The notes under the pieces are model-generated. The model saw only the letters and a list, made by a program, of their open reading frames with translations, did no database searches and had not been told where the DNA came from. A stretch of 64,000 nucleotides of DNA from an uncultured Planctomycetales bacterium (GTDB lineage Bacteria; Omnitrophota; Gorgyraeia; Aquiviventales; Aquiviventaceae): NCBI GenBank assembly GCA_964373175.1, contig CAYJTP010000001.1:41654-105653 (forward strand), read 5' to 3'. Position 1 is the stretch's first letter. Each line of letters begins with the position of its first letter. The position numbers and the translations under genes are program-made. Of the stretch, positions 4,188 through 53,363 are shown in pieces.

Positions 4188-5396
4188 CTATCCATGGAGC
4201 ATCTCTCGGTAGAGCGCCAAGTACTTCTCAACCCCTTTTTCCAGATCGAAATACCTCTCGGCGACCCGCCGGCAGCGACGCCGCAGCTCTTCTCCTTCTT
4301 GAAGCAGTTGACGTAACTGAGACACGGCCAAACGGTAGGAATCGTGGGACAGGGTCCGAACGACCACCCCTACCCTCTCTCGCTCGATGAGCGTGTCGCA
4401 GTCGCCCACCCCTGCGGTGATCACAATGGGGACGCCACAGGCCAACGACTCTCCCACCTTGGTAGGGCAGGCAGCACGTGCGGAGCTGACAGGCTTCACG
4501 AGACACAAGCTGGCTCTTGCATGCCGGAGTGCCCCAGGGACCTCCTCATGGGGCAGGGAGTGGATTCGATACAATCGGGGATCAACGGGAAACCGCTTCT
4601 GATCTATCCGCCCATCGGTACTATAGGTGAGGAGTTCCCACTCTGCATCCGGAATCTGCTCCTGGACCAGGGAGAAAAAGGAGGACATCGCGTCAAGCGC
4701 ATACCACCCCTCCAACGACCCGATATGCACGAGTTTAAAGCCCTTCCCGTTGTTCTGGGAAAGATCCTCAGCCAGGGTAAATCGATTCAGATTGACACAG
4801 GTGGGGATCGCCACCGTGGGAACCTGGATGCCCCGTTCTGCTAACCGAGCATCGAGGATGTTCTTTCCGGCTTCGGAGAGGATCACGATCCCATCTGCGG
4901 CCTGAAAGAAGCGGCGTTCGCACCACTTCGTTGTCCGATAGAGCATCCCGTTTGTCTTCCACAGTCCTCCTTCAACCCGTTGCTCCGGCCAAAATCCCCG
5001 GAGATCAAACAGAAAGCGCGCCCGAGTCAGGTGTGTGACCCACAAGGCGAGCAGGGCCACCACATAGCCCCTGGCGTGAACAATGTCAGGTCGCCATCGG
5101 CTGCAAATCTTCCTCGTTGCCACAAGTCCCTGAAGCAGATCCCACACCGTTGACATCACGGGGGGTCGCTTGTGGTAGCGAAGGGGCAGCCAATGAATCC
5201 GTTGACTCCTGAGATGGCGGCGACATCTCGAGAGGTCATCGTCAGAGAGGGTCGTCTTTTCAAAGCTGACGACGAATAGCTTGATGCCTCCTCGGGCGAA
5301 CCGCTCCAGGTACGGAACAACCTGAGAACGGCCCAACGGATCGAGCAACCCATCGTATGAAAGGTAGAGACAGCGAACTCCAACGGTCCTGTCCAT
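4188..5396 (-). CDS. glycosyltransferase family 4 (GT-B, retaining)
   Basis: The track ORF (4188..5753) has a low-complexity N-terminal extension. Internal Met MDRTVGVRCLYLSYDGLLDPLGRSQVVPYLE (residue 120, coordinate 5396) coincides with the stop of the upstream gene. The C-terminal half has the GT4 E-x7-E-like region (PTKVGESLACGVPIV). Confidence 0.8.
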   Translation of the reverse strand: MDRTVGVRCLYLSYDGLLDPLGRSQVVPYLERFARGGIKLFVVSFEKTTLSDDDLSRCRRHLRSQRIHWLPLRYHKRPPVMSTVWDLLQGLVATRKICSRWRPDIVHARGYVVALLALWVTHLTRARFLFDLRGFWPEQRVEGGLWKTNGMLYRTTKWCERRFFQAADGIVILSEAGKNILDARLAERGIQVPTVAIPTCVNLNRFTLAEDLSQNNGKGFKLVHIGSLEGWYALDAMSSFFSLVQEQIPDAEWELLTYSTDGRIDQKRFPVDPRLYRIHSLPHEEVPGALRHARASLCLVKPVSSARAACPTKVGESLACGVPIVITAGVGDCDTLIERERVGVVVRTLSHDSYRLAVSQLRQLLQEGEELRRRCRRVAERYFDLEKGVEKYLALYREMLHG

Positions 5397-6853
5397 CAGA
5401 CAGCCTCTCGGGACGGTTCTCGCTGAAGCCCTAAGGCTGTCAGGAAAAGGAGGAGTGGCCACACGGACGCCCGGTGTCGAAAGAGCGTCCCGATGTTTCC
5501 CTCCAGTAGGGCCATTGCACTGCAAAACACGAGAATGATGGTCAGGATCAACTGTTGCCCTGGAGACCCCAAGATCGCCCTGGTAGCTCCTCGGAAGGCG
5601 AAGAACAGGAGTGGATACCAGAGGAGCATTTCCAGGGATCCGAGAAGCTCTGTCGAGGAGCGCGCCATCCACGGAGCGGGCAGGGTGAGCACTCCCACCA
5701 GACCAATCGGCAAGAACATGACCACCTTCACCATCGTATCCAAGCGAACCCATTCAAAAAACGGGGTGCGGGCATCGAGCATCCGGACCCTTCTTGAGTA
5801 TTCGATCCATCCTGCGAGCTTGTTCGGCTCAAGAGCCTGTTCCACGATTGCCCGCTGAAAGACCATCGTGTCCACATCTCGACACAACCGTAATAATGGA
5901 CCAGGAACCTTTCCGGAAGAGATCGAGTAACACGTGAATACCGCTGCCGCGAGGAACACTACCCTCAGCATTCTGATATGAACAACCCCATACAACACGC
6001 AATAGATGAGAAGCGCAGCCAGAAACAACGAACCGATGAAGGGATTGACCTTGGCCAGTACCCATGTCACCCCAAGTCCCGCAGCCCAGGTGATCCCGCG
6101 TCCTCGCCGGAATGGGAAAAGGAAAAGAGCCAGGGCCGTCAGCAGCAACGTGAACGACATCGGTTCTTTGAGATTCTGTGTCGACCAAAGAAAAAGGGAA
6201 GGCCAAAAAGCCGTCAGGAGTCCTGCCGCTCGGGCGGCGCGTTCCCGTAGGTACAGTCGGGCAATCCAGTAGGCCAAGATCCCCGCCCATGAGCCAAAGA
6301 GGCAATTCACGCCGAAGAAGGTCAGGGGGTGATAGCCAAGCCAGTAGGCGACAAGCCCGTTCCAGTAATCAAAGGCCACCCCCGCCGCACCGGACAAGCT
6401 CACAGAACCGAGTGCCTCGGGAGTGGGAAATTCACCCCGCTTCCAATGCTCTGCTAGCCAATAGCCGTTGGCGGCATAGCCGTAACCATCTGCAACGAAA
6501 AAGCCCCCGTTCTGGAACATGCCCATCGGTGTCTCGTACCAGATCCTCGGGCAAACACCATACAAGAGCAGGGCGACGATCACCCTCGTCAACAGCGCGG
6601 TCAGGAAGAGTCGTCGCACCCACTTGCTTTGAACAGGCTCGAGTCGCTGAAGCAACACGAGGGAACACAGCGTCCCTGCCCCTAACGCCACCCAGCCCAT
6701 CCTCAGTGGGGAAGGACTGATCGCCACCAGACACCCCAACAGGCTTAAGCCCAGAAGCCGAACCCCCCCTCGGTGCCGACGCGCAAACGCCAACACCTGG
6801 CTATTCCCCCACTGGCAGCGGAAGAAGCCACCCCCCAGCAGGATGCTACTCAT
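5396..6853 (-). CDS. polytopic inner-membrane protein, O-antigen polymerase/ligase-like or GT-C-like (function uncertain)
   Basis: About 486 aa, highly hydrophobic with at least 10 predicted helices, W/Y/G-rich loops and a large loop (GYGYAANGYWLAEHWKRGE...). The first codon of the track ORF is TTG at 6868; an ATG (MSSILLGGG) at 6853 is preferred. Confidence 0.45.
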   Translation of the reverse strand: MSSILLGGGFFRCQWGNSQVLAFARRHRGGVRLLGLSLLGCLVAISPSPLRMGWVALGAGTLCSLVLLQRLEPVQSKWVRRLFLTALLTRVIVALLLYGVCPRIWYETPMGMFQNGGFFVADGYGYAANGYWLAEHWKRGEFPTPEALGSVSLSGAAGVAFDYWNGLVAYWLGYHPLTFFGVNCLFGSWAGILAYWIARLYLRERAARAAGLLTAFWPSLFLWSTQNLKEPMSFTLLLTALALFLFPFRRGRGITWAAGLGVTWVLAKVNPFIGSLFLAALLIYCVLYGVVHIRMLRVVFLAAAVFTCYSISSGKVPGPLLRLCRDVDTMVFQRAIVEQALEPNKLAGWIEYSRRVRMLDARTPFFEWVRLDTMVKVVMFLPIGLVGVLTLPAPWMARSSTELLGSLEMLLWYPLLFFAFRGATRAILGSPGQQLILTIILVFCSAMALLEGNIGTLFRHRASVWPLLLFLTALGLQREPSREAV

Positions 6854-8480
6854 CGGTTTTCTGGGCAACCCCTTCTTCGATTTCGACCACGGTTCCTTGA
6901 AGCGTATATCGAGAAGAGATGAGGGTCAGTAGGTCTCCGATCCGGATCGCCTCTTTGTCTATCTGCAACTCTGCTGTCACCTGTAATCGATGGAGATCCA
7001 CCCTCCGAACGAGGTAAGGATCGCCGGATCTCTGAACCAACCGATAGACTTCTGCTGGCCCGAGGTCTGTTACCCTCGCAATCCTGCCGATCACCTGGCC
7101 TCCCCCGAACAACAGGTCGTCCGCCTTAACAGCCTTTGCTAGCGGCTCAGGGATTTCCTCCGCAACCAGTTGGACCACCTCCTTCCTCGGCACAGTTGCA
7201 GTTTGCTGTGGCGGGGTTTCGCGGATCTCCAGGACAACCACGTCCAAATCGTACTCATCGCTCCGAAGGGACAATGAACTCCCCACCTTCAGGGGCTCTC
7301 CACTGAAGAAAAGCCAAGTCCCCTTGGAGAAGCAGTGCAGCTTCACCCAGAGTTGTATGGTTGAGCTGGTGGGGCGTACCTGGAGAAACCGCTCGGGATT
7401 CACCTCGATGTCGACGCTGGGCAAAAATGGCACGGGGGGAACGAGGAGAAACTGGACCACCTCACCAACAGGGACCATCCTGGCATCGTAGATCGGATCG
7501 TTGGGAGTGATGAGATTGAGGGCGTCGGGCTCGAACTCAGGTATGCGCACCCGGATGTACCTCCAGGCCGGCTCCGGGGCTACGACCACCGTTTCCGCTG
7601 GCGGGGTTTCGCGGATCTCCAGGATGTCGCCGGAGAAGTCATAGCGCAGACTGCGGAGCATCAGGGAAGCCCCGACCTTGAGGAGCTTGTCGTCGAAAAT
7701 AACATGACCACCGCGCTCCCACCCCACGAGCCTCACCCAAAGCTCCACCTGCGGAACCGAAACCGTGAGGGGAAGTTGGAAAAAGCCCTTTTGCTCAAGG
7801 GGAATCCATGACAGCCGTGGATTCGCGACAGAGATTTTCCCATCGATGACCTGACCGACAACCTCCCCCCGGTGATCATAAATCGCATCGCCTCGGTTAA
7901 AAAAGCCTGCCAAGTCCATGGAGGCAATGTTTCCACGAAGCAGAACAAATGCCTCCCTCGGCAAACCGGGGCGGACCGTCCCGGAGAGACCGTATTGCGC
8001 CGACCGGAAGTCAATCGAGGAACCATTCGTGACAGGTCGCCCCTGGAAGTAAAATTTGCCGTCATCACGAGAGAGCTGCCCATGGAGCCGCAACCGGGTC
8101 ACGACCCGCTTTAAAGGCTTACCCGGCACGATCGGAATGTACTGGATAGAGCTGAAGTCGGCGAGTGCCGTCGACGGCTGAGGCGCAAAGGCCTCCAGGA
8201 TCTCTGCCAGAACCCTCCCTGTGGAATCGTGGTACACATCTCCAACTTGAATCTTGGAACTCACCGTGTCCTCCACCCGATCAAAGACACACGCCACTTC
8301 GATTGCGTCGCTGAGCTCCCATGGTCCACCAGGGTGCTGTGGGGCAGTTAAGATGCGATAGCTTGAAATGGCCACAACCCCCCCGGCAATGAGCAGTCCC
8401 GAGAGCACCAGATCAGCAAGGTTGATTATTCCAAAGAGTCTCCCCTGGTCATCAAGCAGACGTCTCATCGCAACCCTCAA
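6846..8480 (-). CDS. membrane-anchored protein of unknown function with four internal ~130-aa repeats
   Basis: 544 aa. N-terminal TM helix (IINLADLVLSGLLIAGGVVAISSY), then repeated segments such as VELWVRLVGWERGGHVIFDDKLLKVGASLMLRSLRYDFSGDILEIRETPP and IQLWVKLHCFSKGTWLFFSGEPLKVGSSLSLRSDEYDLDVVVLEIRETPP. A near-identical ~34-nt DNA repeat is spaced 390 bp apart. Confidence 0.55.
   Translation of the reverse strand: MRVAMRRLLDDQGRLFGIINLADLVLSGLLIAGGVVAISSYRILTAPQHPGGPWELSDAIEVACVFDRVEDTVSSKIQVGDVYHDSTGRVLAEILEAFAPQPSTALADFSSIQYIPIVPGKPLKRVVTRLRLHGQLSRDDGKFYFQGRPVTNGSSIDFRSAQYGLSGTVRPGLPREAFVLLRGNIASMDLAGFFNRGDAIYDHRGEVVGQVIDGKISVANPRLSWIPLEQKGFFQLPLTVSVPQVELWVRLVGWERGGHVIFDDKLLKVGASLMLRSLRYDFSGDILEIRETPPAETVVVAPEPAWRYIRVRIPEFEPDALNLITPNDPIYDARMVPVGEVVQFLLVPPVPFLPSVDIEVNPERFLQVRPTSSTIQLWVKLHCFSKGTWLFFSGEPLKVGSSLSLRSDEYDLDVVVLEIRETPPQQTATVPRKEVVQLVAEEIPEPLAKAVKADDLLFGGGQVIGRIARVTDLGPAEVYRLVQRSGDPYLVRRVDLHRLQVTAELQIDKEAIRIGDLLTLISSRYTLQGTVVEIEEGVAQKTDE
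7201..7234. repeat. direct repeat copy 1 (intragenic, domain duplication)
   Basis: gtttgctgtggcggggtttcgcggatctccagga recurs near-identically 390 bp downstream at 7591-7624. Confidence 0.6.
7591..7624. repeat. direct repeat copy 2 (intragenic, domain duplication)
   Basis: gtttccgctggcggggtttcgcggatctccagga. The 390 bp spacing equals 130 codons, matching the protein-level repeat. Confidence 0.6.
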
Positions 8481-10426
8481 ACGGATGTAGGGATGGTGTC
8501 TGGTCTTTCCTGTTGGACGCCCTCATGGTGACCATCCATAAAGGTGTGCTGCCACAGTTCAAACATGATCAACGCCCACAAGCGGTACCGGTGATCGTGA
8601 ATGCCCCTCGTATGCTCATCAATGAGCCTCTGGACCGCCGCCGGCCGAAAGATCCCTCGCCGAAGCGCACGGGGATCAAGCAGGATTTCCCGCATCCAAG
8701 GATTCAGCTCCTGTTGAAGCCACCGGCCAAGCGGGATCCCAAATCCCATTTTGGACCTTCTGAGGACCGCGCGCGGTAAGACGCCGCCCATCACCTGGCG
8801 AAGCAAGACCTTTGTGGTCAAGCCGCTGACCTTATAGTGAACCGGCAACCGCGCCGCATATTCCATGAGTCGGTGATCGAGAAACGGGGAGCGCACCTCC
8901 AGCGCATGGACCATGCTCGCGATGTCGACTTTGGCTAACAGGTCCTCAGGGAGGTAGCTGCCGATATCCACGGCCATCAAGCGATCAATCACGGAGGAAC
9001 AGGGCCTCTCCTGATAGAGATCCCGTATGAACTGGTCCGATCGGAATCCGTCTACCAGCGCTCGAAATTCACCGGTATACAGCCCGTTGAGCTCCTCCGG
9101 CATGAAGTAACTGATCCATCGGAGGTAACGAGCCTCGAGGGTGGGGTAGCCGCTCACCGCGTTGAAGAACCGCGCCAAGCGATGCAGTCGATCGGTCGTC
9201 GGACGTGTCGCGCCTTGGGCCCCCATCCGGCTAAACAGCCAGCCAGCGATCCGCTTGGCCGAACGGGGGAGCCGATCGATCTGCAACGACACCGCGGCTC
9301 CCACGTAGCGCGGATACCCTGCGAACGACTCATCTCCTCCGTCGCCGTTTAAGGCGACCGTCACGTGCTGACGAGTCTCCCGCGCGACGTAGAATGTCGG
9401 GAGAGCCGACGAATCCGCGTAGGGATCACCATAGTGACGGACCAACATCGGGACGACCGTGGTGGCGTCTGGCCTGACGATGAATTCGTGATGGTCAGTC
9501 CCAAAGGCCTTGGCGACCAATCGAGCGTACGTGAGTTCGCTGTGCTCCGTTTCCTCAAATCCAATCGAGAAGGTCTTGACCGGCCTGTCAGAGAGCCGTG
9601 CCATCATGGCCACCACGCTGCTGGAATCCAAGCCACCGCTTAAGAAGGCTCCTAACGGGACGTCCGACCTCAATCGAATCCGGACGGCTTCCTCAAAAAA
9701 ACTGAGGAACTCCTCTCCGGCTTCCTGCTGGCCCACAGCTCGTTTCGGCTCATACACGAGGTGCCAATAGCGCTCGACCCTCAGACCCCTGGCATCCACA
9801 ACAACGCGGTGAGCGGGTGGGACCTTGGAGATGCCGCTGAAGATGCTGCGTGGGCTTGGGACATATCCGTACGTCAGGTAGAGATCGACGGCCTGCGGGT
9901 CCAACGGACGTTCCACCTCAGGCCCAGCGAGAAGCGCCTGGAGCTCCGAAGCAAAGAGGAGCCGATGCCCGTTGGCTGAGTACCAGAGGGGCTTCTTGCC
10001 GAGCCTGTCCCGCGCCAGCAGGAGGCGCCGTTCTTTTTCGTCCCACAAGGCAAAGGCGAACATCCCTCGGAAGGACTGGAGGCAGTCGAGGCCATCTTCT
10101 TCGTACTGGTGCACGATCACTTCCGTGTCGCTCTCCGTTGTAAACCGGTGTCCTCTTGACTCCAAGTCGCGTCGCAGCTCCACATAGTTGTAGATCTCCC
10201 CGTTACAGATGACCCAGACAGAACGGTCTTCATTGGCTATCGGCTGCCGGCCCCCTGCGAGATCGATGATGGAAAGCCGCCGGTGACCGAACCCAATCGG
10301 TCCGTTCACGTAGAAGCCGGACCCGTCAGGTCCCCGGTGAGCGAGGCAGCTGGTCATGCGTTCCAGCCCCTCCCGGTCAATAGGTCTCTGCGTGTCGAAC
10401 GAGAGCATTCCTGCAATGCCACACAT
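8477..10426 (-). CDS. asparagine synthase (glutamine-hydrolysing) family amidotransferase (AsnB/WbpS-like)
   Basis: Start placed at MCGIAGMLSFD (Met-Cys N-terminus required for class II glutamine amidotransferases). The track ORF extends 113 codons further upstream and is probably spurious. Synthetase domain carries the PP-loop SGGLDSS. Confidence 0.85.
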   Translation of the reverse strand: MCGIAGMLSFDTQRPIDREGLERMTSCLAHRGPDGSGFYVNGPIGFGHRRLSIIDLAGGRQPIANEDRSVWVICNGEIYNYVELRRDLESRGHRFTTESDTEVIVHQYEEDGLDCLQSFRGMFAFALWDEKERRLLLARDRLGKKPLWYSANGHRLLFASELQALLAGPEVERPLDPQAVDLYLTYGYVPSPRSIFSGISKVPPAHRVVVDARGLRVERYWHLVYEPKRAVGQQEAGEEFLSFFEEAVRIRLRSDVPLGAFLSGGLDSSSVVAMMARLSDRPVKTFSIGFEETEHSELTYARLVAKAFGTDHHEFIVRPDATTVVPMLVRHYGDPYADSSALPTFYVARETRQHVTVALNGDGGDESFAGYPRYVGAAVSLQIDRLPRSAKRIAGWLFSRMGAQGATRPTTDRLHRLARFFNAVSGYPTLEARYLRWISYFMPEELNGLYTGEFRALVDGFRSDQFIRDLYQERPCSSVIDRLMAVDIGSYLPEDLLAKVDIASMVHALEVRSPFLDHRLMEYAARLPVHYKVSGLTTKVLLRQVMGGVLPRAVLRRSKMGFGIPLGRWLQQELNPWMREILLDPRALRRGIFRPAAVQRLIDEHTRGIHDHRYRLWALIMFELWQHTFMDGHHEGVQQERPDTIPTSV

Positions 10427-10434
10427 CGCTGATG

Positions 10435-11703
10435 TCAAGCGGCTACGCGACCTTCCCCTGACAGATGGAACAGCCCTCTGACAGCAAAGATGGAAAGATA
10501 CGGCCACATCGGGATTTGGAACCGGGGTGAGGTGACAAACAAGGCATGCAGGGCCGTCAGATACACGAGAGGGACATACAGGGGCACAAGCTGCCGCCAC
10601 GACCTGCGACACACGTACAGTCCCCAGAAACCGAGCAGGACGATCGAGGAATGGATCAGGAACAGCAGCCCTTTCACGGAAAGCTTTTCCCATTGACGTG
10701 TTCGCCACAAGGTCACACTGGCCTCTTGAAGTCCCACGAAGGTATTCCCGTGACTCGCAAACCATAAGTGGAGAAATCGCCTGCCGACGTTCTTCACGTA
10801 ATGAAACGGGTAGCGTCGCAACTGGCGCAGGGCCTCATGGCGCAGGAGGCGCTGCCGTTCTGATGGAGACACGTCCCGACCTAAGGACTTGAACGGTTCC
10901 CGGGTCATATAGTCCAGCTCGGTTGGGCCGTCCTTGTGGAACGCCAGCCACAGGCTCTTATCGTGCTGGTAGGTGCTGAGAAACACGAACTGTCTCGCGA
11001 CGAGAGAGCTGCGCACGGTCCAGGGAAGAACCGTCAGCACGAACCCGGCGAGCAACGCGACCCCCCAGCGGAGGACTTTTCGCTTTTCGTGCTTCATCAG
11101 GAGCAGGCTCGCCAGAAGAACCAGTGGGAGGTATTGCACCCGTGAACTCACCAGTGCCGTGAATCCCAGAGACACCCCCGTCCAGAAGTACCACCGGCTT
11201 CTCTGCAAGCGGAGTGCAGTGAACAAACTGAGAGAGGCAACCAGCAGGATGAGTGTGAACAGCGTTTCTGTCATCAGCAGCCCGGCATAGGCAATCGTCA
11301 CAGGTACACACGTGATGATCGCCGCCGCGCAAACAGCAACCCGCCGATTATTCATGACGTGATCAGCCAAGCGGTACGTGAGGAGGACGATCACGGCCCA
11401 CATGACAGCCTGGGCAGCACGCGCGGTCATGGGATTCGACCCGGTGACGGCATAGATCGTCCCCAAAAAGATGACGTACAGGGGGAGCCGGTCAATCTCG
11501 TACCCGGACTCCTCCCACCCGGGAAACCCCTGCCCCGAGGCCCAGCGCTGCGCCAACAGGTCATAGGCGCCCGCGTCACTGGCCACAGGCAACTGTGGAA
11601 ACCCCAGGACGTACAGGAGCCGCAGCGCCAGTGCGACTATGAACAGCATCGCTACAGGTCGGATGGAATCCTGTAAGAAATACGACCTCCAATGACCCTT
11701 CAT
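10435..11703 (-). CDS. GT-C fold membrane glycosyltransferase (ArnT/PMT-like, GT39/83-like)
   Basis: 422 aa, about 11 TM helices. First periplasmic loop SDAGAYDLLA resembles the D-E/D motif of ArnT/PMT enzymes. Large soluble region near the C-terminus. Confidence 0.65.
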   Translation of the reverse strand: MKGHWRSYFLQDSIRPVAMLFIVALALRLLYVLGFPQLPVASDAGAYDLLAQRWASGQGFPGWEESGYEIDRLPLYVIFLGTIYAVTGSNPMTARAAQAVMWAVIVLLTYRLADHVMNNRRVAVCAAAIITCVPVTIAYAGLLMTETLFTLILLVASLSLFTALRLQRSRWYFWTGVSLGFTALVSSRVQYLPLVLLASLLLMKHEKRKVLRWGVALLAGFVLTVLPWTVRSSLVARQFVFLSTYQHDKSLWLAFHKDGPTELDYMTREPFKSLGRDVSPSERQRLLRHEALRQLRRYPFHYVKNVGRRFLHLWFASHGNTFVGLQEASVTLWRTRQWEKLSVKGLLFLIHSSIVLLGFWGLYVCRRSWRQLVPLYVPLVYLTALHALFVTSPRFQIPMWPYLSIFAVRGLFHLSGEGRVAA

Positions 11704-15927: not shown

Positions 15928-16124
15928 GACATGAATTCGTAAAAATGGTTCTCGTGCATCTGGAAGGCGTCGAACAGGTCCCTGCCACACTGCTGCGTGG
16001 CGCCCATCCCGCCCACGAACGGTGCACGCTCCAGGATGACGACGGCCTGCTCCCCTTCAAGCAAATCGCGGGCCGCCGCCAGGCCGCAGGAACCCGCCCC
16101 CCGGATGACCACAGGCTTATTCAT
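15924..16124 (-). pseudogene. 66-aa N-terminal fragment of an FAD-dependent oxidoreductase (probable gene remnant)
   Basis: MNKPVVIRGAGSCGLAAARDLLEGEQAVVILERAPFVGGMGATQQ has a GxGxxG fold and a 'VGG' motif like CDS 12640..14082, but terminates after 66 aa. It overlaps the next genes at both ends. Confidence 0.4.
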
Positions 16125-17310
16125 GGCTGTCAAACCCCTTGCCGGCCCGCAGATAGACAGACAGTCCCGTTCGCCATCGCGTTCGGTGCTGGCTATGGAC
16201 CTGCCGGTAAAGAGCTCCCAGTCGGCGAGCGGTCTCATCCGCATGAAAGTGCTCACGCACCCTCGCTCGACCCGCCTGGCCCAAGGCCTCACATCGAGAG
16301 GGGTCCTTCAACAGCGTGGCAATGGCCTGAGCCAACGCCTGTGCAGAGCCCGGCTCTGTTAAGAGACCCGTGACACCATCTGCAATGACTTCCGGCATGG
16401 GGCCGAGTCGAAACGCCACGCAAGGTTTTCCCGCTGCCATCGCCTCCAACAGCACGAGTGGCAGCCCTTCGCTCAGAGACGGAAAGATGAACAGATCACT
16501 AAGGGCTAGCAGTTCCGGGATATCGCGACGAGTCCCAAGAAATCGGACGTGGGTTTGAAGACCCAGCGCCTCGGTTTGGCGTTCTAATTCCTGGCGGCAG
16601 CATCCGTTCCCAACGATGAGCCAATACAGCTTGGACAGACTCCCCTGGAGAAGGGTGAGCGTCTGAAGGACGAACCGGTGCCCTTTGGGCGGATCCAGCC
16701 TGCCGATGGTGATCAAGATCTTCGACCCCTCCGGAAGGCAGAGCTCTTCCTTCAGCCGACGGACCCGCTCCGAGCCGACGGTCTCAAACAGTTGCGGATC
16801 GATCGCGTTCGGAATCACAGAGCAACGCTCCTCAGGAATCCGAAACCGCCGAACCACGGATTGCTTCACAAAGTCGGAGACCGCCACAAAGTGGGCTACG
16901 CAGGTCCGAGCGGTCAGACGATCGATCCATTCCCGTTTCCCTGAACGTAGGTAAGGATCCGGGCTTTCGTACGCCGAACCCTGGACTGTCGAAATGACTG
17001 GGATTCCCATCGCCCTTGCGACAACGCGGCCATAGCAGTCGGCGCCAAACAACTGGGTGTGCATCGCATCAGGTCGGATCTGACGAATAAGATTACGGAG
17101 TCTCGGAATCGCGTTGACATCCAACAATCCGCGAAGCCCCAACCCGATGACTGGAATGCCATTCTTGAGAAACAGGTCGGCCATCGAGGTATCGGAAAAC
17201 AGATGCACTACCGTGTGGCAACAGTCGTGGTTCAATCGGACAACGTCATTCAAGAGGCGCCGTTCGGCACCACCGATCCCGAGGCTGTCGATCAGGTGGA
17301 GGATCCGCAT
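16117..17310 (-). CDS. glycosyltransferase family 4 (GT-B)
   Basis: Start at MRILHLIDSLGIGGAERR (ATGA overlap with upstream stop). C-terminal FIFPSLSEGLPLVLLEAMAAGKPCVA is the GT4 signature. The track ORF has a 90-aa low-complexity extension. Confidence 0.8.
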   Translation of the reverse strand: MRILHLIDSLGIGGAERRLLNDVVRLNHDCCHTVVHLFSDTSMADLFLKNGIPVIGLGLRGLLDVNAIPRLRNLIRQIRPDAMHTQLFGADCYGRVVARAMGIPVISTVQGSAYESPDPYLRSGKREWIDRLTARTCVAHFVAVSDFVKQSVVRRFRIPEERCSVIPNAIDPQLFETVGSERVRRLKEELCLPEGSKILITIGRLDPPKGHRFVLQTLTLLQGSLSKLYWLIVGNGCCRQELERQTEALGLQTHVRFLGTRRDIPELLALSDLFIFPSLSEGLPLVLLEAMAAGKPCVAFRLGPMPEVIADGVTGLLTEPGSAQALAQAIATLLKDPSRCEALGQAGRARVREHFHADETARRLGALYRQVHSQHRTRWRTGLSVYLRAGKGFDSHE

Positions 17311-19397
17311 CAGGGAAGCCACTTCGGCGGGTGGTGATGAAACCGCATGAGGGCCTCCAGACTCAGGTCCAGCCAGCGGAACGACCGCAGGGATCTCCGG
17401 ATGAAGTACAGGAACGCCAACCACCGAACCCACTCCGGGTCCACGCCGATAGTCTTCGCGTAGGTTCGGCATGAAGCCGAAACCCTCTTGCGCCAGTCCG
17501 GCTGCTCCAACCGAAGGACGTTTTGCCACACGTTCCCCCCTGTACGGACTTGGACGGCGTTCAGCCACAGATGGAACCAATCCAAGAACGGCAGTTCCCT
17601 CCGGTCGGATTCTTCCCAGTCAACGATCCCGCAGCGCTGCCCATCCCAAAGAAGATTGCAGGGATGGTAATCGCCATGCTGGCACACCGCAAACAATGGG
17701 CTCGTCGGAAGACCTTGGAGCTCCTGATCGAGGTTGGCGAGGACGCGGTAGACGTCCCGGTACGGCCATGTATAACGGGCCGGTTCGAGCCTCTCTTGAA
17801 GCTGAAGAGCTGCTCCCAACAGTTTGGCTCTGACAACGGATGGGCTCAACGGCACACGCGTCGCCGCATGGAACGCCCGGAGCCATTCCTGCGCGGCTTC
17901 CAAGGCACCATCAAGCTCACCACCCTGGAGATGTTCCACCGGAATACCCGCCATCTTTCGGTACACGAACACAGCCGTCTCGCCATGCACGATGGAATCC
18001 ACAGGGACGGGGAGTGGGCGGGAGAGTGGAGGAGGAAGTTCCTGACGCAATTGTTGTACGATCTCAAACTCACGACCTGCTCGGATCCGGTCCTCCGAGA
18101 CCGTCACCCATTTCAGGACGAATGACTGCCCACTCGATGTTGTCTCCCCTAGCCAGCGCATGGCCCCCTCGAGATTCGGAAGTGGGCGGAAGGAAACAGA
18201 CAGATGAGTGGGTTTGGACTGACCGCACCACGCCTCCCAGCGACCGCTCACGACTTCCTTGAGATGCTCCACGTCGTGTCCATGGGGATTCGCGAGCTCC
18301 TGGGGCTTGTGGACTAGCCAACTGGTGTGAGGGATGAGCCAATCCAGTAGTCCCCAGCTGGCCATCTGGATCTTGACCAGGGTCTTGAGGTTCCATGGCT
18401 TTCCCTGGTCCAGCTGACCCAGCCGAGTGGCGAATATCCCACGCTGGTCGGCCGGGATGAGTTCACGGATGTCGTGGTAGGAGGGGCGCGGCCAGAAGAG
18501 CCGGGGCTCTTGGAATCCCGCCTGTGCGAGGAGCCGACGATACCCCCATGTGGAGTGCGTGACGGTCCGATACGGTTTTCCCGTCCGCCACCTGGAATAG
18601 AGTGTCGCCACCCGGTAGGGCAGCACAGAGATATACCGAAGCTTTGTGTGAGGATCCGGTGCCCCTCGAAAGGCGTCAACGCTGAACCGATTCTCGATGC
18701 CTAAATACAGCCAGCCGCCTGGCCGCAAGATCCGTTGTGCTTCGCGCAACATGGCTAGCTGTTTCTCACGCGGATGCCCGTGACTCGCCAGAGGAACCCA
18801 CTCCAACACCCCATTCATGATCACCAGGTCAAAGGAATTCGACGTGAAGGGAAGCAGCCGTTCGTTTCCCCCACACAAGACCTTCACCTGCGCCTCGAGT
18901 CCCTGTTGGCGAATACGCAACGCCGTAAAGAGCGCTCGCTCAAAGGAAAGATCCATGCTCACGACGTGGGCGCCCCTCTGGGCCCACGCGGTCGTCAGCG
19001 TCCCGCAGCCACAGCCCAGATCGAGAACCCTCCATGGCTGCGGCAGCGGAGGCAGGTGGATGGCCCAGGCGATCCGCGTCGGATTCACCAACAGCTTATA
19101 GAGACCGGGACGATTCCACTCTCTGGCCAGCCGTTCTGCCTCTTCCAACCATCGCTCACTCCGGAGCGCCTCGAGCAGCTTCTGGGTCTCTTCCCGACCC
19201 AGCCGTTCCCAAAAGATCGGCGAGCGTGTGAGGATTGGGATGCCCTCCCGCACAGGCCACTCCAACCGGCACCGAGCGCATCGCAGAGCATCTTCCTGCT
19301 GAACCTCCGCTCCACAATTCGGACACGTGAGGTCTTGCTCTCCGCCGCCACGCGTGGCCGATCCTGCAAGAGGCTTGGCGAGCTCGATACCTGCCAC
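17310..19397 (-). CDS. tridomain protein: Trm112-like zinc ribbon + class I SAM methyltransferase + protein-kinase/APH-like kinase domain (WbdD-like O-polysaccharide chain terminator candidate)
   Basis: 695 aa. CPNCG...CARCRLEWPVREGIPIL ribbon; VLDLGCGCGTLT motif I; C-terminal HGDYHPCNLLWD (HGDxxxxN catalytic loop) and DWE (DFG-like) as in eukaryotic-like/aminoglycoside kinases. This is the same domain order as E. coli O9a WbdD. Confidence 0.7.
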   Translation of the reverse strand: MAGIELAKPLAGSATRGGGEQDLTCPNCGAEVQQEDALRCARCRLEWPVREGIPILTRSPIFWERLGREETQKLLEALRSERWLEEAERLAREWNRPGLYKLLVNPTRIAWAIHLPPLPQPWRVLDLGCGCGTLTTAWAQRGAHVVSMDLSFERALFTALRIRQQGLEAQVKVLCGGNERLLPFTSNSFDLVIMNGVLEWVPLASHGHPREKQLAMLREAQRILRPGGWLYLGIENRFSVDAFRGAPDPHTKLRYISVLPYRVATLYSRWRTGKPYRTVTHSTWGYRRLLAQAGFQEPRLFWPRPSYHDIRELIPADQRGIFATRLGQLDQGKPWNLKTLVKIQMASWGLLDWLIPHTSWLVHKPQELANPHGHDVEHLKEVVSGRWEAWCGQSKPTHLSVSFRPLPNLEGAMRWLGETTSSGQSFVLKWVTVSEDRIRAGREFEIVQQLRQELPPPLSRPLPVPVDSIVHGETAVFVYRKMAGIPVEHLQGGELDGALEAAQEWLRAFHAATRVPLSPSVVRAKLLGAALQLQERLEPARYTWPYRDVYRVLANLDQELQGLPTSPLFAVCQHGDYHPCNLLWDGQRCGIVDWEESDRRELPFLDWFHLWLNAVQVRTGGNVWQNVLRLEQPDWRKRVSASCRTYAKTIGVDPEWVRWLAFLYFIRRSLRSFRWLDLSLEALMRFHHHPPKWLP

Positions 19398-19398
19398 C

Positions 19399-20679
19399 TT
19401 AGCTTCCTCCTGCCAGCCGTCTGGCTAACTGCGCGAGGCGCTGATGCGCTAAGCCGTCGCAAGGACCACACACGAACCTGACCAAGCGTCTGCGCTCCTC
19501 TTCCAAATACCGAGGATTCTCTAAGAAGCGATTGATACCGGCAATGAGACTCTCTTCATCCTGGGCGACCCAGGTTGCCCCGGTGTCCCGCACGACCCGA
19601 AAATGGCGCTGCCAGTGATCGTGGTGGATGTTGCGCTCAAACACCTCCGGATGCGCCCCATCGAACGCCACGTTGACCACCGGCGTATCGACCAAGCACG
19701 CTTCCAAGGTGATCGTCGAAGCGATGTTGACCACGACCGCGCTGTGACGAAGGAGATTCGCGATGTGGGTACTTTCCTCAAGCGTGGGATCCCATCCGAG
19801 GACACGGGAAACCCGATGAAACCGGTCAAAACGAAGGTCCGGGATCGATTCGAACTGCTCGTATTGGAAGCTCTGGAGCGGATGGGGCCGACAGAGAAAT
19901 TGGGGATTCCCCACGAATCGTTTCTGACGAACCGCCTGCGCGATCCGCTCAATGAAAAACCCACTGTCGATCTGAGGCATTCCCGTCGCAAGCGTCACCA
20001 CAGGACGGGAAGGATCCAGTTGCAACCTGTGAAGGAACTCCTCCCTTGGGAGGAAGGTGGAGGGAGAAGCATACACATCAAACTGGAGCGCGCCGATCAC
20101 CTCCACCTGTTCGGGGACGTAGTGGTACCGCTGGATGGCTTGCTCCTTCATGATGTCATTCCACACCGCAAGGACATCCGGCCGCTCCAACATCAAGCCT
20201 TTCATCCCGGTGAGGTTGTCCCAACTGTGGACCGCGTAAAGCGTCTGCACCCCGGCTGCCCTCGCTTCCCGAATTAACGGCACGTCGCGTGTCGTCGAGA
20301 ACCCAACGGAAGCCACCACCAACAGGTCTGGCCTGAGCGCGGCGAGGACTTGTCGATAGTGCGCCGGCCGAAACGTGCGGTACGCGGTGTGGTGCATCTG
20401 CATCGCTGCCAGGAAGAGGCCCCGATGAGGCAGGCTCATCTGACAGACCTTCCACAGCGCACGCTCCCAGAGAGCCCGGCCAATCGGCTCGTCGATCAAG
20501 GGAAAGAATGAGACGCGGCCATCCCATCGAAACTCATTCACAAAGTGGGGATCCTCCGCACCGGGACTAAAGATGGCCAGGTGCGTGAGGGGATCAGTCA
20601 ACAGGGCCCTCGGGAATCCGCTGCGTAAGAGAAACCGCGCATAGCGTCCCAACGAGACAGAGAGCGCGATCGTCGACAT
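19399..20679 (-). CDS. surface-carbohydrate/capsule biosynthesis protein, putative GT-B-fold glycosyl- or phospho-transferase
   Basis: About 426 aa, soluble. C-terminal ASTITLEACLVDTPVVNVAFDG resembles GT-B nucleotide-sugar-binding segments of capsule/teichoic-acid-type transferases. The track ORF begins at GTG 20706; ATG at 20679 is preferred. Family assignment is tentative. Confidence 0.5.
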   Translation of the reverse strand: MSTIALSVSLGRYARFLLRSGFPRALLTDPLTHLAIFSPGAEDPHFVNEFRWDGRVSFFPLIDEPIGRALWERALWKVCQMSLPHRGLFLAAMQMHHTAYRTFRPAHYRQVLAALRPDLLVVASVGFSTTRDVPLIREARAAGVQTLYAVHSWDNLTGMKGLMLERPDVLAVWNDIMKEQAIQRYHYVPEQVEVIGALQFDVYASPSTFLPREEFLHRLQLDPSRPVVTLATGMPQIDSGFFIERIAQAVRQKRFVGNPQFLCRPHPLQSFQYEQFESIPDLRFDRFHRVSRVLGWDPTLEESTHIANLLRHSAVVVNIASTITLEACLVDTPVVNVAFDGAHPEVFERNIHHDHWQRHFRVVRDTGATWVAQDEESLIAGINRFLENPRYLEEERRRLVRFVCGPCDGLAHQRLAQLARRLAGGS

Positions 20680-20681
20680 CC

Positions 20682-21611
20682 CTACACACCGTTTGTCCGG
20701 ATCCACCAGTTCTTCATAGTCGCCAGTGGGGTTTTCACGGTATTGATCAGGAACCGCCTCCGAACTTGGCCCCCCGCCTTCTCATACGGCACCTGTTCCA
20801 GGTGAGTGAAGCGCCGCTCAGTCTTTTGGGCTAGAAAGCGCAGTTGCACGACATAGCGCTTCCGAATCTGCCAAAACCGAACGACGCGAAACCCACTCAC
20901 GTGTAACAGCAGCCTCGCTGTGCCCTCCCCATACATGAAGGGATGGTCAATTTGGGCATCGACCTTCAGGAACGAGGAGGCGCGAACGACATCCGGGACG
21001 TCCACATAGAGGAACCCGCCAGGTTTCACGAGCCGGTAGACACTGCGCAGCGTCCCCACAGGCTGAACCACATGATTCAAGGTCCGTGCCAGAATCACCA
21101 GATCAAAGGTTTCGGAGTCGAACTCCGATCCGTCGAACGCCTGTTGGAGCACCGGGATCCCCAACGCCCTCGCCCTTCCACAGGCCACTTCATTCGGTTC
21201 CACCCCAACCACCTGGACCCCGCAGGTCTCCCGCAGGAGCGCGAGAAGCCCACCTTGGTCACACCCGATCTCCAGGACCTTGGAATGGGGGGCAAACTGA
21301 GCGATTTCTTTGAGCCCCTGATCGACGAGCCACTGACCGAACGCTCGCTGCGCGGCTACTCGCTCTTCCCCGTTGTCGATCGTCTCGGTCAACAGTCGGT
21401 AATCATGTTGGTAAAATCGGCTATATCCCTCCGTGGACCACATCGGGTTGAAAAACAGCAACCCACACCGTCTGCAGAGGACAATCTGGATCGGGAAGCC
21501 GTACTTTTCATCGGTCGGCAGCCCTTTCAATCGGTCGGAGCCACAGAGCGTACAGACCCGAGATTGCAGGAAGAGACGGTACCGATCAAAGAGGGTCTGC
21601 GCGAATTCCAT
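20682..21611 (-). CDS. SAM-dependent methyltransferase with N-terminal Cys4 zinc-binding domain (Methyltransf_13-like; sugar C-/O-methyltransferase-like)
   Basis: 309 aa. CTLCGS...CRRCGLLFFNP zinc ribbon; VLEIGCDQGGLL motif I. Confidence 0.75.
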   Translation of the reverse strand: MEFAQTLFDRYRLFLQSRVCTLCGSDRLKGLPTDEKYGFPIQIVLCRRCGLLFFNPMWSTEGYSRFYQHDYRLLTETIDNGEERVAAQRAFGQWLVDQGLKEIAQFAPHSKVLEIGCDQGGLLALLRETCGVQVVGVEPNEVACGRARALGIPVLQQAFDGSEFDSETFDLVILARTLNHVVQPVGTLRSVYRLVKPGGFLYVDVPDVVRASSFLKVDAQIDHPFMYGEGTARLLLHVSGFRVVRFWQIRKRYVVQLRFLAQKTERRFTHLEQVPYEKAGGQVRRRFLINTVKTPLATMKNWWIRTNGV

Positions 21612-21613
21612 GC

Positions 21614-22510
21614 TCAGACGTAGCCCGGACTGACGGGCGACTTGACCCTGCGCAGCTTCGTGAGGATTGGGCGCTCCCGCTCATAGACCACCTTGTTTCC
21701 ATCTCCAAGGATAACAGGAACTGCCCGGACATACTTGACCAAGAGCTCTAACCCATGGGGCTCAAGGCTTGCCGCCTGGTCCGAGCCCCACATGGCTCGA
21801 TTGAGCGTGATGTGACGCTCGACCATGCAGGCTCCCAGGAGGGTCGCAACCACCGAGGGCATGACGCCGGTCTCATGCCCGCTGTATCCGATCGGACACT
21901 GAGGAACGCGCTCCTTCAGTCGGGCGATGAGGCTGAGATTCAACTCGTCATCTTCAGCAGGATACGTGGAGGTACAATGGAGAATCACGAGGTCCTGTCG
22001 GCCCAACACCTCCACGGCGTGCTCAATCTCCTCCATCGTGCTCATGCCGGTGGAAAGAATCACTGGTTTTCCCTTCGAGCGAGTATGGCGCAAGAGGTGG
22101 TCATCGGTGAGGGAGGCAGAAGCAATCTTGTAGCCAGGAGGATTGAATCGATCGATGAAATCAACGGATAGCTCATCCCAACATGAGGCGTACCAGAGGA
22201 TCCCTTGTTGTCTGCACGTCCGAACGATCTCGTCGTACTCCTCCTCGTCCAATTCCAGTCCACGTTTGAGGTCCCCGTTCGTCGGCCCAAACGGGTTCTC
22301 CCGAGGTCGGCTCAATTCCGCCGGGGTGTAGACGACGTCCACGGTTCTCTTTTGGAACTTGACCGCATCTGCCCCCGCGCGGACGGCCACATCGATGAGC
22401 TGTTTCGCTAGCTCGATGTCCCCGTTGTGATTAATCCCAATTTCCGCTGTGATGAAGCAGGGGTGTCCTTCCCCTACCTGACGACCACCGATGGACACCA
22501 CGCCACCCAT
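21614..22510 (-). CDS. N-acetylneuraminate-synthase (NeuB) family aldolase without C-terminal SAF domain
   Basis: 298 aa. CFITAEIGINHNGDIELAKQLID...DAVKFQ...IGYSGHETG are NeuB/PseI/LegI hallmarks. It ends before the SAF (antifreeze-like) domain. Confidence 0.8.
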   Translation of the reverse strand: MGGVVSIGGRQVGEGHPCFITAEIGINHNGDIELAKQLIDVAVRAGADAVKFQKRTVDVVYTPAELSRPRENPFGPTNGDLKRGLELDEEEYDEIVRTCRQQGILWYASCWDELSVDFIDRFNPPGYKIASASLTDDHLLRHTRSKGKPVILSTGMSTMEEIEHAVEVLGRQDLVILHCTSTYPAEDDELNLSLIARLKERVPQCPIGYSGHETGVMPSVVATLLGACMVERHITLNRAMWGSDQAASLEPHGLELLVKYVRAVPVILGDGNKVVYERERPILTKLRRVKSPVSPGYV

Positions 22511-23382: not shown

Positions 23383-24472
23383 AGGTCACTGCTTCACCGG
23401 TCAGCATTGAGCGCTTCACCGCCAGGGCGACCTTCAAACTTTGAAGCCCATCCCAGAGACTGACCTTGGGACTGGCCTGGCCTGTCAGACAGGCCAAGAA
23501 ATGCTTCCATTCAGACAGGAACAGGTGGTTCCGTTCAAGCCCATCGAACCGATACACGTGAGGTGCCTTGGAGCCGGCGTTCCACATCTGAACCGTCTGA
23601 CGGTCATCATCCCAGGCCATCTTTCCCTCGGATCCTACGACGAGACACGATCTCACCGGCGGCTGCTGCAGATAGTCCATATGGACGTGGACAGGAAGCA
23701 GCCGTCCGTCTTCGAGGGGAAAGGACAGCAATGCGGATACCGTATCTTCGGCGTCGACCTCGAGGCGTCCTGACCTGCCTCCGATGGCAAAGACCCGCCG
23801 TGGCGCGCCAAACAACCAGCACGCCATATCAAATTCATGGATCTGAGTTAACACGGCTCCTCCCCCGAGCTCAGCCCTCGCGGCGTAGCTCGTTCGGTAG
23901 TCCTCGTAAGGGTGCCATTGCGGCAGGTACTCCCCGATCTCCAACCGGGCCTCAAGGGGGGCCCCGACCGCCTGCTCTCGAAGCAACCGATGGAGCAGTT
24001 CAAGTCCGGGGTGGAAACGAAACTGGTAGCCCATCAATACCACGAGTTGCTTCTCCTCCACCAGCTGAAGCAGCCGATCCACCCCCTCCAAGGAATGTGA
24101 GAGGGGCTTCTCGATGAGCAGATGACATCCGGCCTGAGCACAGGCAAGAGCCACCGGGATGTGCAGCGCGGTGGGATTGGCGATGACCGCCACTTCCGGT
24201 TTTTGCGCAAGGGCTTCTTCAAGATCTCGGAAGGAGGTCACTCGATAGGCCGCTTCCAGAGAACGGCTTGGATCGATGGCCATCTCCTCGGTCAACACCG
24301 CTTGGGATCCTCGAACTCGATAGGCCAGAATTTCCACATCGGAACCTAAGAGCGCTCGGATGTTTCTAAGATGCCGCTGCCCGACCCCGCCAAGTCCCAC
24401 TATCAGGACTTTTCGGGGAATCACCGCTGGAGACACGCGACGTTCCCTGGTGAGGGTTGTCTGGTTGATCAT
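23369..24472 (-). CDS. Gfo/Idh/MocA-family NAD(P)-dependent oxidoreductase
   Basis: VLIVGLGGVGQRHLRN N-terminal Rossmann fold; EKPLS motif; C-terminal alpha/beta domain. ATGA overlap with the downstream gene. Confidence 0.85.
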   Translation of the reverse strand: MINQTTLTRERRVSPAVIPRKVLIVGLGGVGQRHLRNIRALLGSDVEILAYRVRGSQAVLTEEMAIDPSRSLEAAYRVTSFRDLEEALAQKPEVAVIANPTALHIPVALACAQAGCHLLIEKPLSHSLEGVDRLLQLVEEKQLVVLMGYQFRFHPGLELLHRLLREQAVGAPLEARLEIGEYLPQWHPYEDYRTSYAARAELGGGAVLTQIHEFDMACWLFGAPRRVFAIGGRSGRLEVDAEDTVSALLSFPLEDGRLLPVHVHMDYLQQPPVRSCLVVGSEGKMAWDDDRQTVQMWNAGSKAPHVYRFDGLERNHLFLSEWKHFLACLTGQASPKVSLWDGLQSLKVALAVKRSMLTGEAVTCDAG

Positions 24473-25218
24473 GCGGGATGCCGCTGAACCATCGGCTGCG
24501 GCAGGACCTTGCCCTCGTTACGAGCTTTCATGAGGCGCTCCGCCACGTGAAGCGATTCCTCGTAGTCAATCTCCACACACGGCTCCTGAATCCGAAAGGG
24601 CAGAACCCGGGGGCCTGTCATCGAATTCAATTTCAGAATCGTCTGTGATCGTATGACGTCGACGTATCCGTTCTGCCAGAACATCTCGGGGAGCATCTGA
24701 CGTGGCTGGTTGTAAGGCTCCGGAACCCCGTCGAGCTCAAGCAGGGGCTTCAGATACCTGTCAACGATCCTCCACATCTTGTACGGAGTCTGAACCGGCC
24801 ACGAAACGGATCGAAGAGCGGTCGCCTCCTGATGCGCCTCCAGGGCGTCGATCGCCGCAGCGATCGTCTCGACGTTCCTGACCGGACAGGTGGGGCGAAG
24901 GTGAACCACGAGATCCGGTTCGTATCCCTGCTGCTCTTTGAGCCACCTCATCGCGTGCTGAAACACAGGCAGATCCGGTGTCCGGTCCTGGGCCAGCTCC
25001 GCAGGTCTGAGGAACGGGACCTCCGCTCCTCCCGCTAACGCGACCTGGGCAATTTCCGGATCATCGGTTGAAACCACGGTCCTCGTGATGTACCCGCACG
25101 CCAGGGCGTCTTGGATCGTGTAAACGATCAGAGGTTTTCCATACACAGACCGAAGATTTTTTCGCGGAATTCCCTTCGATCCGCCACGGGCCGGAATGAG
25201 CGCTAGGATCTCAGACAT
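24469..25218 (-). CDS. acylneuraminate cytidylyltransferase family (CMP-nonulosonic acid synthetase, NeuA/PseF-like)
   Basis: Start at ATG MSEILALIPARGGSKGIPRKNL...GKPLIVYTI...VPFLRP. The track ORF starts at an upstream GTG. Confidence 0.8.
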   Translation of the reverse strand: MSEILALIPARGGSKGIPRKNLRSVYGKPLIVYTIQDALACGYITRTVVSTDDPEIAQVALAGGAEVPFLRPAELAQDRTPDLPVFQHAMRWLKEQQGYEPDLVVHLRPTCPVRNVETIAAAIDALEAHQEATALRSVSWPVQTPYKMWRIVDRYLKPLLELDGVPEPYNQPRQMLPEMFWQNGYVDVIRSQTILKLNSMTGPRVLPFRIQEPCVEIDYEESLHVAERLMKARNEGKVLPQPMVQRHPA

Positions 25219-42323: not shown

Positions 42324-42326
42324 GGC

Positions 42327-53325: not shown

Positions 53326-53363
53326 GGGAAGGTTGTGCTCTAGGTCACTGGGTGAGATGTCTT

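Follow-up and report, generated by a model that had tools for sequence, protein, structure and literature searches.

Gene and Protein Layout

The window analyzed here is a 64-kb stretch of DNA (64,000 nucleotides; all positions are counted from its first letter) from contig CAYJTP010000001.1 of assembly GCA_964373175.1, which is placed in the phylum Omnitrophota. The gene of interest at 6846..8468 encodes a member of the Pfam family DUF4330; in this protein, a single transmembrane (TM) helix is followed by four predicted beta-barrel modules. In the mechanical list of open reading frames (ORFs) the frame was opened at a TTG codon, and the ATG at 8468 is the likely start. GAGG is located 5' of this ATG, the resulting N-terminus matches the family consensus M-x-x-I-D-E-K-G, and the database protein P0001 is the identical 540-aa product read from the same codon. 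The elements of the gene and its product are given below, where HMM denotes hidden Markov model, AF2 denotes AlphaFold2, and pLDDT denotes the predicted local distance difference test.

6846..8480, minus strand: mechanical ORF, 544 aa from TTG 8480 (ORF list)
6846..8468, minus strand: DUF4330-family gene, 540 aa from ATG 8468, stop codon TAG at 6846-6848
8412..8456, minus strand: N-terminal motif LDDQGRLFGIINLAD (consensus across the family IDEKGRLFGKINIID), leading into the TM helix (conservation in relatives)
8346..8420, minus strand: single TM helix, aa about 21-45 (hydropathy and AF2)
7968..8303, minus strand: beta-barrel module 1, aa 60-171 (module HMM E 8e-26; AF2 pLDDT mostly >90)
7605..7937, minus strand: beta-barrel module 2, aa 182-292 (module HMM E 4.5e-15)
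7215..7565, minus strand: beta-barrel module 3, aa 306-422 (module HMM E 1.9e-20)
6870..7178, minus strand: beta-barrel module 4, aa 435-537 (module HMM E 2.5e-10)

The hydropathy of the window protein peaked at aa 15-40 (segment near 15-45) with no second hydrophobic segment, and the AF2 helix at aa 21-45 had pLDDT values of 85-96. Four full-length modules of ~105-120 aa each were detected via an iterated module HMM built from the family. The internal repeats R1 to R4 were compared pairwise by Smith-Waterman alignment against 300 shuffles. The R2-R3 pair had by far the largest score (z=24.8), followed by R3-R4 (8.2), R2-R4 (6.4), R1-R3 (5.8), and R1-R2 (5.7); the R1-R4 pair was not significant in this pairwise comparison (z=1.3). 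An initial annotation of the window, made from the sequence alone, had described one N-terminal TM segment followed by four repeated beta-rich modules, and hydropathy, the module HMM, the Smith-Waterman scores, and the AF2 model agreed on this layout.

Family Membership and Module Number

The window protein matched the Pfam model DUF4330 (PF14221) with 51.4 bits against a cutoff of 27.6 (E 1.8e-13) in three stretches, and the TM helix with module 1 alone, which spans positions 2-163 of the 167-position profile, scored 28.4 bits. The DUF4330 check suggested by the initial annotation was thus positive. The protein is a member of DUF4330, a family that is catalogued and uncharacterized; no paper on DUF4330 or PF14221 was found in the literature searched. 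No NCBIfam model matched the window protein, phmmer found no sequence relative in the PDB, and no Rfam match was present in the 64-kb window. In word-index homologue searches, neither the protein nor a 9-sequence alignment retrieved anything other than the protein itself, and a search of genome contigs using the window protein alone found no relative. When 1.84 billion representative proteins were searched exhaustively with phmmer, 209 relatives were obtained at E<=1e-3, and all 123 relatives that were aligned matched DUF4330.

The N-terminal motif, which leads into the TM helix, was the most conserved part of the family and has the consensus (M)KIIDEKGRLFGKINIID. D10, G13, N20, and D23 were conserved in at least 90% of the 123 relatives, and the motif was invariant in a 12-sequence alignment. 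The window protein has LLDDQGRLFGIINLAD and then the TM helix, which fits the pattern (I/L)-D-(D/E)-x-G-(R/K)-(L/I)-F-G-x-(I/V)-N-x-x-D.

The lengths of the relatives clustered near 170, 285, 405, and 535 aa. Among the best 150 of the 209 relatives, 19 had one module, 55 had two, 51 had three, 18 had four, six had five, and one had seven. The Pfam profile comprises the TM helix and one module, whereas the window protein has four, which is a minority state (18/150). A comparison of repeat number among orthologues had been proposed in the initial annotation, and variation was found at this level as well: the syntenic orthologue P0002 (locus L083) has three modules and is without module 4, and P0003 (locus L082) has four. 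Two tandem single-module DUF4330 genes were observed in Oscillospiraceae and other Clostridia (L034, L045, L046, L050, L053, L065, L070, L073, and L081), and such pairs could be a split version of the multi-module architecture.

Predicted Fold

The structure was modeled with AF2 as a monomer on the 123-sequence alignment; a single-sequence AF2 run gave a pLDDT of 33. The model had a mean pLDDT of 87.2 and a predicted template modeling score (pTM) of 0.59, and it comprised four beta-barrel domains preceded by the TM helix (aa 21-45). Each modeled domain contained a short helix after the first strand and a hairpin or loop of 20-25 residues with lower confidence, located at aa about 98-122, 219-242, 348-373, and 476-495. 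According to Foldseek, the best match in the PDB was LetB/YebT (9n8x_D, E 1.1e-6, prob 0.99), and 6v0f_A and 6kz4_A were also matched. MCE proteins (LetB, MlaD, and Mce1) were the best PDB fold matches by both methods used. When 3586 ORFs were ranked with an MCE-core HMM, DUF4330 ORFs took 16 of the top 50 places (hypergeometric p=3e-15), but with weak alignments whose registers disagree (see below).

The architecture was also similar. MCE proteins have an N-terminal TM helix and tandem seven-stranded barrels, each domain forming one hexameric ring, and their length is proportional to the domain number, reaching ~220 Å for seven rings (10.1101/748145). In DUF4330 an N-terminal TM anchor is likewise predicted to be followed by tandem barrels, four here and one to seven in the family; this body plan is common to MlaD (one domain), PqiB (three), and LetB (seven). 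In E. coli, the gene of the polytopic partner protein, letA, overlaps letB. As a separate observation, four relatives in the 123-sequence alignment match HAS-barrel, the ring-forming barrel of the HerA/ATP-synthase type, with a best E of 2.9e-7 that may be a sum over several modules.

Gene Neighborhood

The genes adjacent to the DUF4330 gene were examined in the window and in the orthologous loci L082 and L083. The initial annotation had placed the gene between an amidotransferase and a polytopic membrane protein, and both neighbors were found as claimed, the former upstream and the latter downstream.

8477..10426, minus strand: glutamine-dependent amidotransferase of the Asn-synthase type, 649 aa (Pfam Asn_synthase E 1.9e-102, and GATase_7)
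5396..6853, minus strand: polytopic membrane protein, 485 aa, at least eight hydrophobic segments (hydropathy), downstream of DUF4330
4188..5396, minus strand: GT4 glycosyltransferase, 402 aa (Pfam Glyco_trans_4_4, Glyco_transf_4, and Glycos_transf_1)
21614-22510, 29003-30061, 24469-25254, 30096-32093, 47917-49698, 41004-43214, and 46532-47920, minus strand: examples from the surface-glycan supercluster

The genes follow one another as PMT_2, amidotransferase, DUF4330, polytopic membrane protein, and GT4, with start and stop codons overlapping or abutting throughout. The TGA stop of the amidotransferase gene overlaps the TTG at 8480, the ATG of the downstream membrane protein overlaps the DUF4330 stop by 8 nt, and the stop of the membrane-protein gene either adjoins or overlaps the GT4 start. 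Two of the mechanical ORFs were overlong (amidotransferase 8477-10765, 762 aa; GT4 4188-5753, 521 aa), and their long N-terminal extensions overlap upstream genes; translation probably begins at 10426 (MCGIAG) and 5396 (MDRTVG), respectively. The best NCBIfam match of the amidotransferase was the XrtA/PEP-CTERM amidotransferase, with 659 bits, below the cutoff of 816.9.

The order AsnB, DUF4330, GT-C-like membrane protein, and GT4 was kept in L082 and L083, with the GT4 gene in the same position. In both loci, the amidotransferase and DUF4330 genes are separated by one additional small gene, which is transglutaminase-like in L083. The downstream membrane protein was 48-61% identical among the window, L082, and L083. 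It had a weak Pfam match to PMT_2/GT-C (E 0.0053, below the cutoff), and the L082 copy also had a weak PMT_2 match. An assignment of this protein as a Wzy_C protein or O-antigen ligase was rejected, with no match to the Wzy_C-cluster HMM and an hhalign probability of 0.1. No Wzy_C was detected in the window, and the GT-C-like protein occupies that position; in this respect the window differs from most DUF4330 members, which have a Wzy_C protein beside them.

All large ORFs of the window are on the minus strand. The surrounding cluster contains GT2, GT4, and PMT_2 glycosyltransferases, methyltransferases, GNATs, and DegT aminotransferases, together with two NeuB genes, several CMP-sugar cytidylyltransferases (at least four such domains), a Wzm/Wzt ABC transporter, and a Kdo-transferase-like gene. 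The partner GT4 cluster had a strong match at 16117-17619 (280 bits). On the basis of these annotations, the supercluster suggests a diderm bacterium that makes a lipopolysaccharide (LPS)/O-antigen-type polymer with nonulosonic acids.

The neighborhood was then compared across the family. Species-representative genomes were scanned with the N-terminal motif, giving 80 loci, and the 68 with a called DUF4330 gene were used for the counts; neighboring ORFs were called and clustered, and the cluster representatives were annotated. The 80 loci were from Omnitrophota, Planctomycetia (including the metagenome-assembled genome of an anammox bacterium), Nitrospinota, many Clostridia, Methanosarcinales, and Halorientalis. 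In 51 of the 68 loci, all from other genomes, a gene for a Wzy_C (O-antigen ligase/polymerase-like) protein was located within five genes. Within three genes, a GT4 was found in 41/68 and a GT1-DUF218 fusion in 30/68, and the amidotransferase recurred in 10 loci (phmmer). Loci of Omnitrophota and Planctomycetia also contained a small membrane protein, an epimerase, a WecA-like/CapD fusion, and GT9 heptosyltransferases. Those of Clostridia also contained MurJ and polysaccharide pyruvyl transferases; clostridial loci with MurJ and CsaB-type pyruvyl transferases are secondary cell-wall polymer loci. The haloarchaeal DUF4330 genes were near Bac_transf and GT4 or directly beside BacA/UppP. The common denominator of the loci is the assembly of polyprenol-linked glycans at the membrane, and this gene context is the strongest functional clue for DUF4330.

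Two further features of these loci were observed. In 16 loci of Omnitrophota and Planctomycetia (L002-L014, L018, L020, and L028), a membrane protein of ~185 aa with no Pfam match is always encoded directly downstream of DUF4330; it has no counterpart in the window. In L088 (3775-5683) and L087 (10407-11231), a haloarchaeal DUF4330 gene with five to seven modules is followed by an unannotated gene for a protein of 274-337 aa, and in one haloarchaeal case this gene is followed by BacA/UppP, a polyprenyl-diphosphate phosphatase.

Proposed Function and Alternative Explanations

The best explanation as a whole, held tentatively and at slightly less than even confidence, is that the window protein is a TM-anchored four-barrel accessory of the surface-glycan machinery, with an MCE-like ring stack as the favored form. 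The single N-terminal helix would anchor the protein in the cytoplasmic membrane, with the conserved motif DxxGRLFGxxNxxD on the cytoplasmic side and the four barrel modules arranged in series on the outer (periplasmic) side. The protein would most likely be a non-enzymatic accessory subunit in the assembly or transfer of a polyprenol-linked surface glycan, which here may be an LPS/O-antigen-type polymer with nonulosonic acids. The partner would probably be the GT-C-like polytopic membrane protein encoded by the overlapping gene, and elsewhere mostly Wzy_C/O-antigen-ligase-like proteins. The number of modules would set the reach from the membrane. Lateral oligomerization into stacked rings, the favored arrangement, may then provide a platform or conduit for the lipid-linked substrate. 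Stacked rings are favored because the modules are closest in modeled structure to MCE domains and the protein shares the body plan of MlaD, PqiB, and LetB.

Several results weigh against this explanation, most of them against the MCE comparison. The AF2 model is that of a monomer, and its module 4 was covered by ~3 alignment rows. The window protein had no match to Pfam MlaD (PF02470) at E<=10, and this model matched only 3/123 relatives, with a best E of 0.03, whereas PRC-barrel matched 5/123 and HAS-barrel 4/123 (best E 2.9e-7). An hhalign profile of 391 modules gave probabilities of at most 1% against MlaD, PqiB, and LetB singly and 3.3% against a profile of 11 E. coli MCE domains; these domains, delimited for this purpose, were used because the MlaD homologues, all enterobacterial and at least 78% identical, were too narrow a set for a useful MCE profile. 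The weak alignments with the MCE-core HMM fell in three different registers within the module, which fits a recurring hairpin motif of the G-x-x-V type better than a unique homology. In addition, the long variable hairpin appears to connect strands 3 and 4 (our own count in the AF2 model), compared with beta5-beta6 for the MCE pore loop, and on reading its sequence it appears amphipathic and not markedly hydrophobic, unlike the MCE pore-lining loop. No MlaE/MlaF, PqiA, or LetA-type gene was adjacent in the window, L082, or L083, and the partner in the window clade is not a Wzy_C protein, according to the hhalign result given above. No Mla, Pqi, or Let component occurred among the annotated recurrent neighbor clusters. 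The protein is therefore described only as MCE-like, in its modeled fold and its architecture, because the sequence tests were negative and no Mla, Pqi, or Let partner was nearby; a homology to MCE proteins at the sequence level is not demonstrable.

The main rival to the stacked rings is a monomeric stalk or spacer, or an analogue of a chain-length regulator, which would form no rings and would position or regulate a polymerase- or ligase-like enzyme, the module number acting as a ruler for the glycan length or the spacing of envelope layers. A periplasmic scaffold or chain-length determinant had been suggested in the initial annotation and would be compatible with the conserved glycan-assembly context. 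This context is the same under both explanations, orthologues differ in module number although their loci are otherwise syntenic, and rings are not required by an MCE link that is not significant in sequence. We nevertheless regard a stalk or ruler as somewhat unlikely, since single-module forms are present in monoderm Clostridia and the window cluster uses a Wzm/Wzt ABC transporter; in the Wzm/Wzt pathway, the chain length is usually set in the cytoplasm and not by a periplasmic regulator. Features of the Wzz/polysaccharide co-polymerase (PCP) type were also lacking. DUF4330 proteins resemble Wzz/PCP proteins in their membrane anchor, their large, presumably extracytoplasmic part, and their occurrence in surface-glycan clusters near Wzy-type proteins. 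In PCPs, however, two TM helices flank a mainly alpha-helical periplasmic domain, whereas the window protein has one TM helix and a modeled ectodomain that is entirely beta, with no Wzz Pfam match at E<=10, and membership in the Wzz/PCP group was rejected on these grounds. YbbR/CdaR proteins are likewise similar in having an N-terminal TM helix and about four tandem beta-rich repeats, and a YbbR-like fold had been suggested in the initial annotation. This suggestion was not borne out: no YbbR match was obtained at E<=10, YbbR was outside the 25 families most often matched by the 123 relatives, and YbbR proteins were not among the listed fold matches. The gene context of DUF4330 differs as well, YbbR/CdaR being the companion of the diadenylate cyclase CdaA.

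The protein may alternatively be a true, very divergent MCE subunit that moves lipids such as phospholipids, its glycan neighborhood being incidental. The closest PDB folds by both methods and the shared plan of a TM helix with one to seven tandem barrels (10.1101/748145) are compatible with such a transporter. It is made improbable by the lack of an MlaE/MlaF-, PqiA-, or LetA-like neighbor in the window, L082, and L083 and by the glycan context in 51-52 of the 68 loci, which include monoderms and archaea without an outer membrane. Moreover, multi-MCE-domain proteins were found in a survey only in Proteobacteria and close relatives (PMC10665443), unlike DUF4330, which occurs in monoderm Clostridia and archaea.

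The membrane orientation bears on a further alternative, in which the topology is inverted and cytoplasmic barrels dock soluble GT4 glycosyltransferases onto the membrane. GT4 genes are indeed among the commonest immediate neighbors, at most one gene away in 21 loci. Among 139 relatives with complete N-termini, lysine plus arginine (K+R) was more abundant in the 15 residues before the TM helix than in the 15 residues behind it in 76 cases and less abundant in 18; the means were 3.09 for the N-terminal and 2.40 for the C-terminal flank, so the charge bias is modest. Four relatives (P0021, P0075, P0123, and P0141) have an inserted IPT/TIG domain, an immunoglobulin-like domain, at aa about 43-120, where it separates the TM helix from the first module, and in prokaryotes IPT/TIG domains are normally extracytoplasmic. 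The K+R bias, together with the IPT/TIG domain directly after the TM helix, points to an N-terminus inside and modules outside. The closest folds are those of periplasmic domains, and an inverted topology is accordingly quite improbable.

With the stacked-ring explanation favored for the window protein, a wider proposal may be considered for the family, which we judge rather unlikely. DUF4330 would be a very divergent branch or analogue of MCE, forming stacked rings whose height is given by one to seven modules and working with Wzy_C/WaaL-like or GT-C-like partners instead of MlaFE, PqiA, or LetA, and it would hand on polyprenol-linked glycans or glycolipids in diderms, monoderm Clostridia, and archaea. 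To our knowledge, MCE systems have not been described in monoderm Clostridia or archaea.

The finding for the window itself is modest, namely one more member of a catalogued and unstudied family. At the family level, DUF4330 is a conserved neighbor of O-antigen-ligase/polymerase-like and GT-C-like enzymes in Omnitrophota, Planctomycetia, Nitrospinota, Clostridia, and archaea. Its proteins differ in length by whole modules, and these modules most resemble the ring-forming MCE domains of lipid tunnels that span the envelope. If such rings or stalks work with ligases or polymerases, they may be a missing accessory in the assembly of LPS, secondary cell-wall polymers, and archaeal glycans. The MCE principle that the domain number sets the reach would then be extended to glycan pathways, monoderms, and archaea.

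Age and Origin of the 34-nt Repeat

The two copies of a direct repeat are located at the ends of modules 2 and 3.

7591..7624, no strand assigned: direct repeat copy A, 34 nt, end of module 2, aa 286-297 (ILEIRETPPAE)
7201..7234, no strand assigned: direct repeat copy B, 34 nt, end of module 3, aa 416-427 (VLEIRETPPQQ)

The copies are identical at 31/34 positions (91%) and lie exactly 390 nt (130 codons) apart. The near-identical repeat reported in the initial annotation is therefore real, and by our own estimate it is far beyond chance for a region of 1.9 kb. A matching duplication at the DNA level was also claimed there, and this held for the 34-nt tract but not beyond it. When modules 2 and 3 were compared at the DNA level in this register of 390 nt, the 30-nt windows outside the tract were 17-67% identical. 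An identity of 80-83% was reached only over the final ~34 nt, including a perfect match of 26 nt that corresponds to the codons of LEIRETPP.

In the initial annotation, the repeat was read as a sign of recent tandem domain duplication; under this explanation, the repeat architecture would stem from one module copied in tandem, and the 34-nt tract would be what is left of the event. The 91% identity of the tract and its exact spacing speak for such an event. Modules 2 and 3, however, were only 38% identical in protein sequence, and the remaining paralogous pairs were 22-26% identical (module identity matrices). The modules of the window protein were about as similar to their positional orthologues (38-43%, and 38-61% across P0002, P0003, and P0004) as module 2 is to module 3, with 40% for module 4 against module 4 of P0003. 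Orthologues with an overall identity of only 40-49% contain both module 2 and module 3, and the tails of these two modules differ there: module 2 ends in LQLSES, IQISQV, or IQLSTA and module 3 in LEIRE, VEIAQ, or VEIRE. The presence of both modules in the orthologues, their divergence at the level of orthologues, and the distinct orthologue tails indicate that the duplication of modules 2 and 3 is old. A recent tandem duplication is contradicted by the in-register DNA profile and the comparison of orthologue modules, and its probability is now very low.

In comparison with those orthologues, only the window protein carries a module-3-type tail on module 2, with identical codons. Hence, the 34-nt tract is best explained as a short patch of gene conversion within the old duplication, with module 3 as the donor and module 2 as the recipient. 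In the four-module relatives P0008 and P0009, two adjacent modules are nearly identical, with identical stretches of ~80 residues, indicating that recent module duplications do occur elsewhere in DUF4330.

Other Observations in the Glycan Cluster

Several sizeable ORFs within the glycan cluster had no Pfam match (26033-27487, 36643-37803, 44081-45019, and 19399-20706), and the last of these had a weak, sub-threshold NCBIfam match to the BFO_1060-family glycosyltransferase domain. At 51353-53517, in the middle of the cluster, a DAHP-synthase-I/KdsA-like gene lies beside a shikimate-dehydrogenase-like gene, which is an unusual pairing for the synthesis of a sugar acid.

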